This document shows positions 4,001 through 15,335 of a stretch of 64,000 nt of DNA, piece by piece. The notes under the pieces were generated by a model that saw only the letters and a program-made list of their open reading frames with translations, made no database searches and was not told the DNA's origin. This DNA is from a virus, in IMG/VR virus record IMGVR_UViG_3300027833_003138, positions 1-64,000 of that record. The stretch is one strand, 5' to 3'. Numbering within the stretch: the stretch's first letter is position 1; the number at the start of each line of letters is the position of its first letter. Both the position numbers and the translations under genes were made by a program.

Positions 4001-4309
4001 ATGCGAAAAGTAACACAACAAATTAAACAAGCCTTCAATCAAGGCACATCTCTAAAGGTAGGCAACACAAGGACAGACGGGCAAACCGTTTGGCTACATG
4101 GCAACGCCATTGTTAAGCGTGACCCTGACGGCTTGGTCAGATGGTCGCTTGCAGGATGGAACACGCCCACCACACGCGAACGCGTCAATGGTATAGCGAA
4201 TGCAGATGTTTGCCAATTCAAATTCGAGCCTGTACTAAATGGTCAAGTGATTGACTCATCCGATTGGTTCGCTTCGCCACCCAAGCTGCCCGACCTTCTA
4301 GTGTTCTAA
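4001..4309 (+). CDS. Conserved phage hypothetical protein
   Basis: MRKVT..IKQAF...VGNT...LHGNAI...GWNTPTTRERVNGI pattern; TTGACA promoter upstream. Confidence 0.8.
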   Translation: MRKVTQQIKQAFNQGTSLKVGNTRTDGQTVWLHGNAIVKRDPDGLVRWSLAGWNTPTTRERVNGIANADVCQFKFEPVLNGQVIDSSDWFASPPKLPDLLVF

Positions 4310-4310
4310 G

Positions 4311-4602
4311 CTCTCACATAGTTGACCTATACAACAGCCCACTATGTGGGCTTTTTTGTGCCCTATCCTGCCATAGCATTGTGCAGTCGGTCTTGTCGTA
4401 AGTTCTTGAATGCCAACAACTTAGGGCAAACTGCCCTCCGGAGTTTTCCGTAACTCGTTGAACGGCAACGACTTACAACAGAATTGATACAGATTCCGTG
4501 CCAACTTCGCAACAAAATCGCAACAGGATTGTGCAAAAACATAGTTGAAAGGTAAGTGAGAAAAAGCTTGTGTTTTGCCGTTTTGTCTGATACATTGTAT
4601 AT
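4311..4602 (+). repeat. Intergenic regulatory repeat unit 1 (terminator, paired palindromes, conserved core, promoter)
   Basis: Homologous to 6041-6246 and 7119-7409; 4465-4566 identical to 7273-7374. Confidence 0.93.
4336..4357 (+). terminator. Rho-independent terminator
   Basis: AGCCCAC-tat-GTGGGCT followed by a T-run. Confidence 0.8.
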
Positions 4603-4833
4603 ATGATTAAGAATAATAAAGTTGAAGAAATAAAACAAGAATTGAATTTGGATCTCGACCTTGGCTTGGCATTGGCTGAAGCTGAAGGCAACTTGAACCA
4701 CTTGGCTCGTGAGTCAAATTCATCCGATTGGCAAGGTACAATCACGCAAGGCATAACAATTCTTGACGCATTGAACGCAGTACAAAAAGCAAGAAAAGCT
4801 TTTCAGAAAATAAAGCAAAATAAATCAAAATAA
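4603..4833 (+). CDS. Hypothetical protein, paralog of 7938..8141
   Basis: Shared D(L/F)G.ALA..EG...L and TI...L.....RK.F..IK; leaderless promoter TTGTGT-17-TACATT-6-ATG. Confidence 0.8.
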   Translation: MIKNNKVEEIKQELNLDLDLGLALAEAEGNLNHLARESNSSDWQGTITQGITILDALNAVQKARKAFQKIKQNKSK

Positions 4834-4910
4834 AGTTTGCAATTACGCCCGAACTATGTTACCTTTAGGTATAGAATAAATTAAATAGTAACAATAAAAT
4901 AATAAATAAT

Positions 4911-5096
4911 ATGAATTCATCATCAATAAAATTCCGTATCAGAGAAACTGAAACAGACATCCGTAACGCTACCGATTCCTTAGAAATCGCCCGACTTGAG
5001 AAAGATCTCAAAGAGTGGAAGCTCCATTTACACAACGCTCAAATGATCGAGCTTGAGGAAAGAGTTGGTTTTAGATCAATGGAGCGAAACGCTTAA
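4911..5096 (+). CDS. Hypothetical coiled-coil protein
   Basis: ORF with promoter and A-rich leader. Confidence 0.7.
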   Translation: MNSSSIKFRIRETETDIRNATDSLEIARLEKDLKEWKLHLHNAQMIELEERVGFRSMERNA

Positions 5097-5116
5097 TCTT
5101 TAATAAATTAACTAAT

Positions 5117-5305
5117 ATGAATAAAATACAAGTAAGAATCCAAGAGTGGTCAACTCATTGGTCAGTAAAAATCTTCGATCAAGGCATCGACTCAAACGGC
5201 AATGATCGCCCAAGGGTTCGGACTGCATCAAGTCAATCGCATCTTGATAAGATCATGCGAGACGAAGGTCTCAATCAATTTCGCTTTAATGTCGTCTTTC
5301 AATAA
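5117..5305 (+). CDS. Hypothetical protein
   Basis: ORF in cassette A. Confidence 0.7.
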   Translation: MNKIQVRIQEWSTHWSVKIFDQGIDSNGNDRPRVRTASSQSHLDKIMRDEGLNQFRFNVVFQ

Positions 5306-5365
5306 TAAGAAAAAAAAAGTAAAATAAAGTTTGACTTTTAACCAAAACTAGATTAAATTGTATAT

Positions 5366-5638
5366 ATGATAAAGAATAAAACATTCGTAGCAAGCGTTCA
5401 TGTCTCTTCTCTCAATGGGGAAGCAATTTCCTTATGGAATAGTAATACCAAGTCGTACATCGACATAGACAAGACGCATCATGCGATCACTATACAAGCT
5501 GAAGACAAGCACGAAGTAAGGCGAAAAGTTGCTCGCATGATTCGCACGCTTCAACCAAAGTTGCAATTTCAAACAAGCATTCAACGCAAAGATGGCGATA
5601 ATGCTCAATACTACATCCAACAAATTTGGGAAAAATAA
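5366..5638 (+). CDS. Hypothetical protein
   Basis: TTGACT-17-TAAATT-6-ATG leaderless promoter. Confidence 0.75.
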   Translation: MIKNKTFVASVHVSSLNGEAISLWNSNTKSYIDIDKTHHAITIQAEDKHEVRRKVARMIRTLQPKLQFQTSIQRKDGDNAQYYIQQIWEK

Positions 5639-5686
5639 ATTATCTTTTTTCTTGCGTAAAACTTAAAAAACTGCTTTAATAATAAA

Positions 5687-5842
5687 ATGATAAATGTACA
5701 TCCAAACCCTAACTTTGCTAATTGGTTCAATGTTGTCTTTAATGGCAAATTAATTGATGGAGCAAAATCTCACGCTAAAGCCTTGCGAATCGCAAAAAGA
5801 TTAAGTGCTAAAACAAAAGCCCCGATTCTCTCAAGCAAATAA
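5687..5842 (+). CDS. Small basic protein (51 aa)
   Basis: Manual: MINVHPNPNFANWFNVVFNGKLIDGAKSHAKALRIAKRLSAKTKAPILSSK*; TTGCGT-17-TTTAAT-6-ATG. Confidence 0.7.
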   Translation: MINVHPNPNFANWFNVVFNGKLIDGAKSHAKALRIAKRLSAKTKAPILSSK

Positions 5843-5846
5843 AATT

Positions 5847-6032
5847 ATGAACGAAAAACAAAAATTGCAAAAAATAATTGACGATCACGCCGAGCCTGCA
5901 GAAAATGGCTCTATTCTATCAAGAATGTATGTTATCGCAGCACAAATGGAACTTGATAAGATAGCTCAAAATGAGCTTGCCGACTATGTAGCTTATACCC
6001 CACTGCCCGATCCTCTCATCTTAGTTGACTAA
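5847..6032 (+). CDS. Hypothetical protein, paralog of 8180..8347
   Basis: Shared L...I..H...A..G...S...V..AQM.LD.I; start reassigned to 5847. Confidence 0.75.
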   Translation: MNEKQKLQKIIDDHAEPAENGSILSRMYVIAAQMELDKIAQNELADYVAYTPLPDPLILVD

Positions 6033-6040
6033 TAAGTTTT

Positions 6041-6246
6041 CGTAAGTAACTGAATACCAACGACTTAGGGAAAAAATCCCTGGGCGGTTTTCCGTAACTC
6101 GTTGAACGGCAACGACTTACAACAGAATCGATACAGATTCCGTGCCAACTTCGCAACAAAATCGCAGTCGAATCGTGCAAAAAGATAGTTGAAAGGTAAG
6201 TGAGAAAAAGCTTGTGTCTTGCCGGCTTTTCCTTTATGTTGTATAT
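6041..6246 (+). repeat. Intergenic regulatory repeat unit 2 (lacks the terminator part)
   Basis: Paired palindromes at about 6042 and 6094, conserved core, promoter TTGTGT-17-TATGTT. Confidence 0.93.
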
Positions 6247-6426
6247 ATGGACAAAGGAATTACACTTCTCAAAAAAGTTAAAGCCGATATCTTCTTTCAT
6301 CAAGAAGTTATCAGAAACGAGAGCGATCCGGCAATTGTTGCAATCTCCAAAGACTTACTACGACAAAATCAAGATTGGCTTGCAGAATGGGATTTACAGG
6401 ATAAAGTTGCAATGCAAAATAACTAA
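6247..6426 (+). CDS. Hypothetical protein
   Basis: Start reassigned to MDKGITLL (leaderless ATG 6 nt after -10). Confidence 0.7.
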   Translation: MDKGITLLKKVKADIFFHQEVIRNESDPAIVAISKDLLRQNQDWLAEWDLQDKVAMQNN

Positions 6427-6503
6427 AAATAAAGCTTGACCTTTATAAAAAATACTATACTCTCTTACTTATAACATTAATAATAAATAACAAAATAAAT
6501 AAA

Positions 6504-7112
6504 ATGAAAATTGCTAAAACTCAAATGAATCGAATCTCTCAATTTGCAACAAACTCAAGCCCTCGCAGTAAAACAGGACATGGTAAAAGTTTGGAGATGT
6601 TCCTCGCTGATCACTTCGACTTTCCCGAATATGATCAATACAAGTCCAAGGTTGACTTTCCAAAAGAGATCGTTGCACAGGGAAATGTTCCATCTGATTG
6701 GGTTGCAGATTGGGAAGTAAAATACTACAACATTAAATCTTCTGTTATAATGCTTGGCGACCTTGAAAGAAAAATGCAATGCCTTAAAGATGGCTTGGTT
6801 ATAGTGATTGGGCTTTACGATGGAACGCCCGACAATCTTGTAGATATTAAATTTATCAAAATCAAAGCTGATAATTCTTTACTAAAACATTTTAACACTT
6901 GGAAGAAAGCCTCTGAATTCGTTAAAGACAGAGATAACACAATAGAAGAAACTCGCCAATTCGTCAAAAATATAAATGCAAAGATCAAAAGCAAATTCTT
7001 TGTGAGTAATACCTCCATGCAAAACAGATGGAGCACTTCAAAAGGAATAATGAGAGGCGAAGCTCGTCAAGTCTCTTTGTCTATCTCATCCAAGAACTTA
7101 ATGAAAATATAA
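6504..7112 (+). CDS. Putative PD-(D/E)XK restriction-endonuclease-like nuclease
   Basis: HGKSLE ... KVD ... WEVK ... MLGDLER spacing resembles the type II REase catalytic core. Confidence 0.5.
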   Translation: MKIAKTQMNRISQFATNSSPRSKTGHGKSLEMFLADHFDFPEYDQYKSKVDFPKEIVAQGNVPSDWVADWEVKYYNIKSSVIMLGDLERKMQCLKDGLVIVIGLYDGTPDNLVDIKFIKIKADNSLLKHFNTWKKASEFVKDRDNTIEETRQFVKNINAKIKSKFFVSNTSMQNRWSTSKGIMRGEARQVSLSISSKNLMKI

Positions 7113-7118
7113 CTTAAA

Positions 7119-7409
7119 CTCCCACATAGTTAACCTATGCAATAGCCCACTATGTGGGCTTTTTTGTGCCCTATCCTGCCGTAGGATTGTGCAGTCAGTT
7201 ATCTCGTAAGGTCTTGAACATCAACGACTTAGGGAAAAAATCCCTGGGCGGTTTTCCGCAACTCGTTGAATAGCAACGACTTACAACAGAATTGATACAG
7301 ATTCCGTGCCAACTTCGCAACAAAATCGCAACAGGATTGTGCAAAAACATAGTTGAAAGGTAAGTGAGAAAAAGTTTGCGTTTTGCTTGGTTATGCCTTA
7401 TGTTTAAGT
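7119..7409 (+). repeat. Intergenic regulatory repeat unit 3
   Basis: Full-length homolog of unit 1, including terminator 7144-7165. Confidence 0.93.
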
Positions 7410-7907
7410 ATGATTAAAAATAAAACAAAAGCTTTTGTCTTCGACTTTGATGATACTTTAGCATTCACAGATGCAAAGGTTCATGTCATGAGTGAACAAA
7501 ATGAATGCGTTGCAAGCTTAACTCCTCAAGGGTTTAATGACGCAAAGCTAAAAGATGGTCAATGGTTCGACTTCTCAGACTTTGACAAATCAAGTTTTAT
7601 TCTTAACGGAACACCAACAAAATTAATAGACTTGGCGAAAGATGTTTTCAACGAAGGTCATTCTGTTTTCATCTTAACGGCAAGAACAAGCTCTGCATCT
7701 TCTGCAATAGCTGAATTCTTGGGTCACAACTTCATAACTGCAAAAGAAATTCATTGCGTTGGATCTCAAGGCTCAGACATCGCAAAATCAAAAAGAAAAG
7801 TTTTACTATCAATAATTGAAAACTTCGATAAAATTTGGTTCTTCGATGATGACGAAAGAAATATTCAATTAGCAAAAGATTTACCACTTACTGCAAAAAA
7901 AGTTTGA
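7410..7907 (+). CDS. HAD-superfamily phosphatase-like protein
   Basis: FDFDDTL (motif I), LTAR (II), K, FFDDDERN (IV); start reassigned to MIKNK at 7410. Confidence 0.85.
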   Translation: MIKNKTKAFVFDFDDTLAFTDAKVHVMSEQNECVASLTPQGFNDAKLKDGQWFDFSDFDKSSFILNGTPTKLIDLAKDVFNEGHSVFILTARTSSASSAIAEFLGHNFITAKEIHCVGSQGSDIAKSKRKVLLSIIENFDKIWFFDDDERNIQLAKDLPLTAKKV

Positions 7908-8841: not shown

Positions 8842-8880
8842 GGTCAACCCGTGAGAGTTCGCGGGTTGACCATTCTTTTT
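8842..8880 (+). terminator. Strong hairpin terminator ending the rightward block
   Basis: GGTCAACCCG-n10-CGGGTTGACC then attcttttt. Confidence 0.8.
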
Positions 8881-8882
8881 CT

Positions 8883-9011
8883 CATAAAGTATTGATACTC
8901 AACGACTTAGGGCAAAAAGCCCAGGGAGTTTTTTCATAACTCGTTGATACTCAATCACTTAGGGAAAACTGCCTAGGGCTTTTTATAAAATGTTAATAAT
9001 CAACGACTTAT
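8883..9011. promoter_or_regulatory. Triple palindromic IHF-like site at the transcription convergence point
   Basis: Three copies, periods 52 and 49 bp; exact WATCAANNNNTTR at 8885-8897(-), 8937-8949(-), 8998-9010(+). Confidence 0.75.
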
Positions 9012-10231: not shown

Positions 10232-10295
10232 AAGTATCAGTATGTCAGAATCTCAACCAAAGTCAACCCTTAAATGCAAAAAAACAAAAATAATT

Positions 10296-10374
10296 GTAAA
10301 CCGTTGCGACTCAATGACTTGCGCGAAATCGCCCAGGGCTTTTTGCCCTAACTAGTTCATAACCAAGCGTTTAT
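10296..10374. promoter_or_regulatory. Paired palindromic IHF-like element (degenerate)
   Basis: gtaaaccgttg..caatgacttgc plus a second copy 52 bp away; gcccagggc spacer. Confidence 0.65.
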
Positions 10375-10453
10375 AACATCTGCATAAATGCATAAAAAAA
10401 TGTATGCACTAAAGGTTAATAAAATTGATGTAATCAATAATGCTTTAATCATA

Positions 10454-11361: not shown

Positions 11362-11611
11362 GTCTTAATTATGGTTGAATTAGTTGCTTCTGTCAAGCTT
11401 TTTAATAATGTTTTTTGCTTTTTCGATTCCTTTTTCTGTACCGAATTGTCCGAGCAATCTCTTGAAAGTTTCCCATGAAATAGTATTAGAGGGAAGTTCT
11501 TGAAATTGTTTCATTCTTTGCTTTGCTTGTTCGTCTTTCATAAGTATAATTATGACATCATATAGAGGTAAGTCAACCCTAAAATTAATAAAATTAAAAA
11601 AACTTTATGAC

Positions 11612-11690
11612 GTTACTCGTTAACTATCAACGACTTACGCAAAAAAGCCTAGGCCGGTTTTCCCTAACCTCTTGAACCTCAACGACTTAT
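11612..11690. promoter_or_regulatory. Paired palindromic IHF-like element
   Basis: caacgactta at 11628 and 11680 (52 bp); exact IHF consensus 11625-11637; spacer aaaaaagcctaggccggtttt. Confidence 0.75.
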
Positions 11691-11710
11691 GCAATAATAA
11701 ATGTGGGCAC

Positions 11711-12790: not shown

Positions 12791-12990
12791 AGTTTTTTTA
12801 GTTTTGGTTTATCGCTTTGTAAGATTTAATTATACGAAAGTTTTTGGTTTTTGTCAAGCTTTTTTTTCTTCGATTAAGTTTTTTTTGTTTCGACTAATTT
12901 TTTTTAAGTTCAGTTATCGTCTTGATGTATACTAGTATGACAGAAAATGATGTCATGTCAACACTTTTTTTTCATAAAATTAAAATAGTT

Positions 12991-13069
12991 GTAAGTATAT
13001 GAATATCAATGACTTAGGAAAAACCGCCCAGGACTTTTTTGCGTAAGTCCTTGGTGGTAAGTGATTTAG
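12991..13069. promoter_or_regulatory. Paired palindromic IHF-like element adjoining the tRNA 3' end
   Basis: gtaagt starts at 12991 and 13043 (52 bp); exact IHF consensus 13004-13016. Confidence 0.75.
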
Positions 13070-13076
13070 GTAAGCT

Positions 13077-15007: not shown

Positions 15008-15072
15008 AAATACAAGTATGACAGGTTTTTACCTCAAGTCAACCTTTTTCTTCATTTTTTTTCTAAAACATT

Positions 15073-15151
15073 GCAAGTCGTTGGTAGCCAATTAGTTATG
15101 AAAAAACGCCTAGGCGGATTTTACGCAACTCGTTGTTATTCAATAACTTAT
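15073..15151. promoter_or_regulatory. Paired palindromic IHF-like element
   Basis: gcaagtcgttg at 15073 and gcaactcgttg at 15125 (52 bp); spacer aaaaaacgcctaggcggatttt. Confidence 0.72.
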
Positions 15152-15335
15152 GTAATTTATGTCATTTTAATTTGATTATGTTTATTATTTTTCTTCTTAT
15201 ATTTGGCTCTTATATTTGTGTTATTTACTATTGATATTTGAACAAGATAAGTTTGTTATTTAGAAGTCGTCCCTTTCTTCTCTAATGAGTTGTATAAGGC
15301 CTGCGATTGCGCTCAAGATAATTATTGTTAACACT

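Follow-up and report, generated by a model that had tools for sequence, protein, structure and literature searches.

In this study, we analyzed three long direct repeats, here named U1, U2 and U3, in the early gene region of an uncultured phage. They lie in the first 64 kb (the window) of the 140,314-bp IMG/VR virus record IMGVR_UViG_3300027833_003138, which is rated 79% complete. The repeats are probably paralogous copies of one composite boundary cassette, which recombine with each other and serve as joints for the turnover of small early genes. Each copy would close one early transcription unit and open the next. The evidence comes from the anatomy of the units, the distribution of their copies, their mosaicism, and the gene content found between them in relatives, which are designated by their G and L numbers.

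The units extend over positions 4307–4602 (U1), 6037–6246 (U2) and 7115–7409 (U3). A repeat search returned them as a three-copy family at 4307–4578, 5951–6222 and 7115–7386 with spacings of 1644 and 1164 bp. In a search against the phage's own genome the copies were 100/90/88% identical with E values from 1e-108 to 1e-66, and a partial fourth copy was detected at 8900–8947. The location and the patchwork composition of the units, as described in the initial annotation, were confirmed to the base. U1 and U3 share an identical core segment of 102 nt (4465–4566 = 7273–7374), which is the maximal run, U2 equals U3 exactly in the spacer between the two palindromes (4427–4446 in U1 coordinates), and U1 equals U2 in the second palindrome (B) and in the −35 hexamer TTGTGT. 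A predicted terminator is common to U1 and U3, with the identical sequence AGCCCACTATGTGGGCT followed by T6 at 4336–4352 and 7144–7160 (hairpin AGCCCAC-TAT-GTGGGCT).

From left to right, a unit is composed of the terminator (U1 and U3), an 87-bp module, a core of ~68 nt, an A/G-rich UP-like stretch and a weak −35 box, followed by a locus-specific spacer, a −10 box and an ATG 5–6 nt later. The module of U1 has the layout TAAGTnnTTG-N5-CAACGACTTA, A-run, GC centre, T-run, TAACTCGTTG-N5-CAACGACTTA, so that four half-sites of the type CAACGACTTA / TAAGTnnTTG are arranged around the A-run, the GC centre and the T-run. Within the core, the 18-mer ATACAGATTCCGTGCCAA is unchanged in every long copy (47+), even where clades differ elsewhere in the core. 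The terminator-bearing left extension is confined to the window's clade, where it is found at the U1 and U3 positions.

The module also occurs outside U1–U3. Using a profile derived from the units (nhmmer), it was found eight times in the window (starting at 4394, 6038, 7202, 8880, 10292, 11608, 12987 and 15069), always intergenic, and not once in the remaining 125 kb of the genome (16–140 kb). A pattern scan together with the profile yielded ~122 modules in ~35 related IMG/VR contigs, typically 1.1–1.6 kb apart, and nearly always the module started at, overlapped or lay just past the stop codon of the upstream gene. Column conservation over 80 distinct copies marked CAAnnACTTAnG, AAA, GCC, TTTT and AACTCnTTG as conserved positions. 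The long unit is a subset of this module family, and the module itself appears to be a general upstream element of the early promoters of this lineage. When the pattern of a promoter with a leaderless ATG (TTGnnn-N16-18-TAnnnT-N4-9-ATG) was scored within 160 nt of the module, 34 of 78 modules had it downstream, compared to 2 of 78 with the pattern on the opposite flank and 5% of random windows.

Short modules are followed by 15–36 nt of A-rich sequence and by promoters whose −35 boxes are nearly all TTGACW, whereas U1–U3 carry the 68-nt core and GAAAGGTAAGTGAGAAAAAG instead and the −35 boxes of long units are mostly non-consensus (TTGTGT, TTGCGT, TTGCAA). The putative promoters of the units are read as such because of their homology to TTGACT-N17-TACATT-GTATAT-ATG, which relatives have at the U1 position with the same spacer length. 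Spacers and −10 boxes are a property of the local gene, as the sequence shared by the long copies stops at −35. The initial annotation had regarded each unit as a portable terminator–promoter ending in a promoter that fires at an ATG. Promoter-like boxes followed by an ATG are indeed present at all three units, but with the homogenised part ending at the −35 hexamer and a terminator in U1 and U3 only, this portability could not be maintained.

As the ATG codons lie 5–6 nt past the −10 boxes, the starts at 4603, 6247 and 7410 fall at the expected +1 position and are predicted to be leaderless. The units have no Shine–Dalgarno site, as this short distance leaves no room for a leader. The start at 7410 appears sound because the product opens with MIKNKTKAFVFDFDDTL, the N-terminal DxDxT motif of HAD hydrolases. 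Early starts predicted to be leaderless are present at 4603, 5366, 7410 and 7938 and at many other loci (e.g. L020:2686–2780). Many of these genes share the first codons ATGATTAAGA (MIK- N-termini). The homology thereby continues into the open reading frames (ORFs), where it provides a junction for recombination; L031 and L042 have another gene behind the same first 11 nt.

The distance between module and −35 falls into classes of 15, 25–27, 35–37, 77, 87–88 and 99–101 nt, the 77-nt class being a long unit with a 10-nt deletion. At a period of 10.5 bp the Rayleigh test gave R = 0.865 (P about 0.002), which is only suggestive of helical phasing between module and promoter. A second kind of long insert between module and promoter is present in L019, L025, L030, L031, L040 and L042 (e.g. 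L030:11130–11230). It comprises ~100 nt, begins with AACCTAAAAC... or AAACAAATTATAATCGC..., is unrelated to the core of U1–U3 and places the −35 box at 99–101 nt from the module.

Comparison of orthologous units revealed exchange between copies. U1 of the window differs from its orthologue in G003 at 9 positions, 8 of them in one 16-nt tract (P<5e-5), and for this tract U3 of G002 has the same allele as found here. U1 of G001 is a chimera that resembles U3 in its left part and U1 in its right part. The clean run of 102 nt between U1 and U3 is likewise not expected by chance (P<5e-5), but is due in part to constraint on the core. A set of 48 long units, taken from contigs of viruses and metagenomes, showed reassortment of left arms, of spacer and core alleles, of the AAAAAC/G site, and of promoters and downstream genes, with all four combinations of core allele and AAAAAC/G site being present. 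Orthologous units that differ by tracts matching paralogous units indicate gene conversion, and the clustered tracts and the chimeric U1 of G001 bear out the earlier proposal that the patchwork was left by exchange between copies.

A single copy of the long form (module and core) is found in L013, L020 and L042, in each case between the 5847-like and 7938-like genes (genes are referred to by their start positions in the window). L015, L045 and L047 have two copies, and L010 and the window's clade have three. Since it is single-copy in some relatives and has two or three copies in others, the long form seems to have reached further module positions by spreading. In nucleotide identity to L010, the unit (86–90%) is no less conserved than its neighbouring genes (72–83%). 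Exchange junctions were located in the module, at −35, between −10 and ATG, and within the first ~11 nt of ORFs. Searches for tyrosine recombinases (PF00589), serine recombinases (PF00239) and Y1 transposases (PF01797) gave no match in the 140-kb record. Because no recombinase was detectable and the junctions are scattered, general homologous recombination on homologies of 50–290 bp would be an economical explanation.

Gene maps of ~18 loci showed a conserved skeleton with extensive turnover of cassettes. A constant content and order across relatives was not seen; content varies widely, and breakpoints among relatives lie at units, modules or the promoter–ATG junction. For the long unit after the 5847-like gene, four states were observed: the unit is followed directly by 7938; by 6247 and 7938; by 6247, 6504, a second unit, the HAD gene and 7938, as in the window and G003; or, in G002, by the same order as in the window, with 6247 replaced by a paralogue of 5366 directly past U2. 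Gene 4911 is absent in G001 and L013, many relatives including L010, L013 and L020 carry an extra unit and two genes between 5687 and 5847, and in L030 and L040 modules lie on both sides of the 6504 cassette. Homologues of the HAD hydrolase 7410–7907 with 65–75% identity were observed in the module-free IMG/VR phage contigs L054–L058. Because these homologues sit in phage contigs without modules, the HAD gene looks like an imported cassette in the window's clade. The locus had initially been described as an accordion, in which gene blocks are gained, lost or duplicated through the repeats. Gain, loss and replacement at units were observed, but recent tandem duplication was not, since the paralogous genes are old (35–47% amino-acid identity). 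Table 1 lists the features of the locus.

Table 1. Units, modules and gene cassettes in the window, with the basis of each assignment.
Feature	Position	Strand	Basis or remark
U1 left extension, predicted intrinsic terminator hairpin 4336–4352 and T-run	4311–4393	+	Terminator scan
U1 87-bp dyad-symmetric module	4394–4480	+	nhmmer, 80-copy alignment, column conservation
U1 core, invariant 18-mer at 4487–4504	4481–4546	+	Alignments of 24 and 47 long units
U1 UP-like stretch GAAAGGTAAGTGAGAAAAAG	4547–4566	+	Sequence reading
U1 putative promoter, TTGTGT, 17-nt spacer, TACATT	−35 4568–4573; −10 4591–4596; ATG 4603	+	Reading and homology
U2 module	6038–6124	+	Starts 5 nt past stop codon of gene 5847–6032; no terminator before
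U2 core with promoter, 18-mer at 6131–6148	6125–6249	+	Sequence, alignment
U2 putative promoter, TTGTGT, TATGTT	UP-like 6191–6210; −35 6212–6217; −10 6235–6240; ATG 6247	+	
U3 left extension, predicted terminator hairpin 7144–7160 and T-run	7119–7201	+	Terminator scan
U3 module	7202–7288	+	nhmmer, alignment
U3 core with promoter, 18-mer at 7295–7312	7289–7412	+	Sequence, alignment
U3 putative promoter, TTGCGT, TATGTT	UP-like 7355–7374; −35 7376–7381; −10 7399–7404; ATG 7410	+	
U4, strong predicted terminator hairpin 8842–8871, then two overlapping short modules	8842–9011	.	
Four further short modules	10292–10378, 11608–11694, 12987–13073, 15069–15155		Intergenic, minus-strand early block; nhmmer, ORF map
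Cassettes bounded by units, U1 to U2	4603–4833, 4911–5096, 5117–5305, 5366–5638, 5687–5842, 5847–6032	+	ORF lists
Cassettes bounded by units, U2 to U3	6247–6426, 6504–7112	+	ORF lists
Cassette after U3 (HAD-type hydrolase)	7410–7907	+	ORF lists

The formation of the locus could be envisaged as follows. Ancestrally, the long form would have been present as a single copy between the 5847-like and 7938-like genes. Homologous rather than targeted recombination would then have copied it onto other module-bearing intergenic sites, with the module as the left and the UP/−35 region as the right homology arm. Short-tract gene conversion would afterwards have created the patchwork, and the homologies of 200–290 bp would act as joints for insertion, deletion and replacement of small early genes, as promoter-early stem-loops (PeSLs) do in T4-like phages. 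At each copy, the local spacer, −10 box and ATG 5–6 nt later would give a leaderless mRNA.

Several results weigh against this course of events. It gives no role to the core and its invariant 18-mer. The unit promoters (TTGTGT or TTGCGT, N17, TACATT or TATGTT) match 7/12 positions of the sigma70 consensus, and with their −35 boxes matching at 3/6 positions they remained below the threshold of the sigma70 scan and were not called. In the terminator scan, nothing in U2 fitted the pattern, and neither did the modules of U1–U3. A deletion exactly between two long units, i.e. the 1.64-kb or 1.16-kb deletion predicted for an accordion locus, was present in none of the relatives found, and some breakpoints lie at ordinary promoter/leader repeats rather than at long units (4911 cassette, 3321 replacement). 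The phasing test is built on seven length classes, which are few and were chosen by the analyst. Also, the compensated twin hairpin of distant clades, described below, would be in keeping with a role as nucleic-acid structure.

The repeats might be a shared cis-regulatory region only, with one factor binding the module and/or the core and with recombination being incidental rather than the driver of turnover. An activator that offsets a weak −35 box, as MotA does at T4 middle promoters, would be an example. This fits the non-consensus −35 boxes of long units next to the TTGACW boxes of short modules, the invariance of the 18-mer in clades with a differing core, the distances that look helically phased, and the lack of pairing covariation in the main clade. 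However, the mosaic tracts and the reassortment of alleles mean that the copies do recombine, and structural differences among relatives begin or end in units. No candidate binding protein was found, nor was a gene for HU or IHF in the 140-kb record. As the sole explanation, a cis-regulatory role is doubtful.

A binding role of the module within the preferred recombining boundary cassette is another matter. The IHF-like pairs noted initially are not strict IHF sites, since the strict IHF core WATCAANNNNTTR is absent from U1–U3 and not enriched in the window (16 matches vs 11.05 expected, five of them in short modules at 8885–9010, 11625 and 13004). The half-sites of the module fit CAANNNNTTR. 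Because of its sequence conservation, its phasing and its fixed position upstream of promoters, the module most probably functions as DNA, namely as an element that binds a protein or bends and that stays in helical register with the promoter. Going further, the 87-bp module and the 18-mer together could form the recognition platform of a dedicated protein, either a transcription factor, of the phage or of the host, or a helper of recombination, that would actively target regulation and cassette exchange. We consider such a platform unlikely.

Alternatively, the units could act as RNA. The module would then be a twin-hairpin 3′-end stabiliser or processing site (REP/BIME- or T7 RNase III-like), or it would be covered by an antisense RNA, with the sigma54-like TTGGCACGGAATCTGTAT on the minus strand of the core starting a small RNA at the module's edge. 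Altogether, we judge an RNA role to be quite improbable. With RNAalifold, no consensus structure was obtained for the 80 distinct modules. The proportion of paired cells was 69–70% (three-hairpin and long-hairpin models) compared to 71–72% with partner columns shuffled, double changes were fewer than in shuffles, and a C-C mismatch is conserved. Since pairing is no better than in shuffles and the mismatch is conserved, the palindromy of the main clade lies in the consensus and is not kept by compensation. Rfam searches at the gathering threshold and at E up to 1 gave no match in the units, and z-scores for folding of single units were only −1.8 and −2.5. The core alone yielded a weak helix with only wobble-compatible changes and an alifold energy of only −5 kcal/mol.

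The opposite picture was obtained in distant clades, where the module consists of near-perfect twin hairpins of 10–13 bp with site A changed on both arms (TAAACCCTTG / CAAGGGTTTA), as an RNA role would have it. In one such clade (L063, L066, L087, L088, L106 and L120) the 18-mer is kept, and the first palindrome is self-complementary with a GC-rich centre. The reverse strand folds better in 58 of the 80 main-clade modules, which would favour an antisense RNA, but in distant clades the forward strand folds better. Because of this reversal, the asymmetry was rejected as evidence for an antisense RNA. Furthermore, the leaderless starts lie 70–150 nt beyond the module, so processing in the module would not create them.

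The antisense version draws on the reading of the 18-mer on the minus strand, which in all three units gives TTGGCACGGAATCTGTAT, a sigma54-type −24/−12 element with GT at −12. Compared to the reference pattern TGGCAC-N5-TTGC (GG at −24, GC at −12), the minus strand of the core reads TTGGCACG-GAAT-CTGTA, with a perfect −24 element and GT instead of GC at −12, and it points leftwards, into the module. A metagenome scan for the 18-mer returned phage contexts and ~22 bacterial contigs with 50–56% GC (e.g. L072, L093 and L123). In the latter, the identical TTGGCACGGAATCTGTAT lies ~120–140 nt before a type IV pilin gene, with a conserved leader after it, and there it is a probable sigma54 −24/−12 promoter. 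However, neither the canonical TGGYAY-N5-TTGC nor any other sigma54-type promoter was found anywhere in the phage genome, which also has no detectable gene for a sigma54 DNA-binding domain or an enhancer-binding activator. The ~nine unrelated matches of the 18-mer fit a rough chance estimate that rests on an assumed, not measured, collection size. A match to Sigma54_activat was rejected as an activator because it is a generic AAA+/RuvB-like protein. The sigma54-like reading of the 18-mer is thus a low-probability lead.

That the modules are site-specific recombinase sites of an integron-like cassette array, with an attC-like architecture, is hardly credible. The module resembles attC sites in having four half-sites in two inverted pairs, with 5-bp inner spacers, around a variable centre, and one module bounds each gene cassette; several exchange junctions even flank the central spacer. 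But the searches of the 140-kb record for recombinases, integrases included, and Y1 transposases given above were negative, and the junctions are not at one point, as they also occur at −35, between −10 and ATG and inside the first ~11 nt of ORFs. In addition, sequence rather than structure is conserved, and every cassette has its own promoter.

An assembly artefact was considered as the assembly is metagenomic and repeats of 200–300 nt can mislead assemblers, but it can be dismissed with near certainty: the copies differ by 10–12% in a fixed position-specific pattern, and independent assemblies from several other samples retain the same arrangement of three units with these differences. Likewise, match E values of 1e-66 to 1e-108 leave practically no place for a chance likeness of AT-rich promoter regions.

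Besides the features discussed so far, some further observations were made in and around the units. U4 is located at the junction where the plus-strand gene block meets the minus-strand gene block. Its predicted terminator has a 13-bp stem, and its two overlapping modules make up one large palindrome ending in GGGCTTTTT. At 4302–4311, at the stop codon of the gp96-like gene, TGTTCTAAG matches the left edge of the short module that relatives have at this position, and it looks like a relic from replacement of the original module by terminator and long unit. Just before the modules of U1 and U3, ATTGTGCAGTCGG (4381–4392) resembles the core part 4523–4540, which reads GATTGTGCA, with GCAGTCGAATCG as the U2 allele. 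This likeness may be a trace of earlier recombination between units. On reading the sequence and the ORF list, no convincing small ORFs inside the units and no convincing extra sigma70 promoters on either strand of the core were detected.

The window encodes PhoH, a subtilase, an rIIA-like protein, a Kyano_Gp96-like protein, three tRNAs and a manA RNA, and a tail sheath gene is present in the 140-kb record beyond the window. Small ORFs are on the plus strand over 3.2–8.7 kb and on the minus strand from 9.1 kb on. The 140-kb record gave no match to Gp23 (PF07068), for which the control search matched nothing in any genome, and none to Portal_T4 (PF07230; T4 gp20). The rIIA protein is less than 30% identical to that of any GenBank phage. 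Because of these results, we describe the phage as a divergent uncultured marine myovirus that is not demonstrably T4-like. U1 as query gave no match in GenBank phage DNA. An 8.9-kb contig, L059 (JBMYOA010000064.1), stems as a fragment from the same phage lineage; it carries ~7 modules, and its early region is syntenic. It was also the single match when the genome collection was searched for clues to the host, being binned in a metagenome-assembled genome of the Opitutales (Verrucomicrobia). This is either a weak hint to the host or a binning error, and too weak to be used. At 66–67 kb of G000 (L124:826–1779, minus strand), a 317-amino-acid AAA+ protein with RuvB_N and RuvB_C-like domains is encoded, possibly a recombination or branch-migration factor of the phage.

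Among known systems, the units most resemble the PeSLs of T4-like myoviruses (Arbiol et al. 2010, PMC2839356; Comeau et al. 2014, PMC4122927). PeSLs are characterised by a sigma70-like early promoter, a stem-loop or terminator upstream of it, and a Shine–Dalgarno sequence and start codon at the 3′ end (PMC2839356, PMC4122927). Mini-circles arising by recombination between neighbouring elements were reported (Arbiol et al., PMC2839356), and homologous recombination was proposed as the mechanism of exchange (PMC2839356, PMC4122927). The analogy to PeSLs, already drawn in the initial annotation, holds in architecture and genomic behaviour (PMC2839356, PMC4122927). Each is a composite cassette between genes that combines a stem-loop or terminator (here the hairpins of U1 and U3 and the palindromic module of U1–U3) with A-rich sequence, seen here behind the short modules and replaced by the core and GAAAGGTAAGTGAGAAAAAG in U1–U3, and with a sigma70-like early promoter immediately in front of an ORF, which in the units is putative. 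Both occur many times per genome, clustered in a hyperplastic region among small variable genes, and at both, close relatives differ by insertions, deletions and replacements. Crossovers are located in the stem-loop, in the A-rich region and between −10 and ATG. Also, the module with its A-run, GC centre and T-run brings to mind the consensus A3-4G3-loop-C3T3-4 of phage nt-1.

Differences to PeSLs are evident as well. The units are 210–290 nt long, while PeSLs are 'small' cassettes, and their palindromic part is an 87-bp element of four half-sites that is conserved in sequence. U1–U3 carry the extra 68-nt core with the invariant 18-mer, Shine–Dalgarno sites are lacking in the units with starts predicted to be leaderless, U1, U3 and U4 have a separate canonical predicted terminator ahead of the module, and the phage does not demonstrably belong to the T4-like group. 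The principle of PeSLs is already known in T4-like phages, and the units described here are a longer and more elaborate form.

Two other systems have less in common with the units. In Escherichia coli, BIME/RIP elements combine REP palindromes with an IHF site. Like the units, they are mosaics of imperfect palindromes that are scattered outside genes, at the 3′ ends of transcription units, and in which inverted repeats are combined with a motif resembling an IHF site. The geometry is reversed here, however, with IHF-like half-sites flanking the GC centre and the strict IHF core absent from U1–U3, and the element belongs to a phage and is linked to a promoter downstream of it. Stoperators of cluster A mycobacteriophages are asymmetric 13–14-bp sites of the repressor of a temperate phage. 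They are likewise present as many copies of a conserved site in short intergenic regions, where both would affect transcription at gene boundaries via protein binding, whereas the site described here has 87 bp and dyad symmetry, and there is no sign of lysogeny (no integrase found).

Phage genomes are full of small early genes of unassigned function that turn over quickly, and how such genes are exchanged while regulation is spared was known in outline only for T4-like coliphages and vibriophages, through the PeSLs. The same principle probably operates in a deeply divergent lineage of uncultured marine myoviruses and in a richer form, with an 87-bp twin palindrome at nearly every early gene boundary, promoters predicted to be leaderless, and a 68-nt insert that appears to spread between boundaries by gene conversion. 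With ~170 copies, modules and units offer a natural experiment on how long the tracts of phage recombination are and where its junctions fall. Both the invariant 18-mer and the phased module provide concrete targets for finding the protein, if any, that organises the early transcription units. Should a dedicated protein exist, early regulation and cassette exchange would be actively targeted rather than a by-product of general homologous recombination, and it would be the 'specific DNA-binding protein' on which Arbiol et al. (PMC2839356) speculated for PeSLs.

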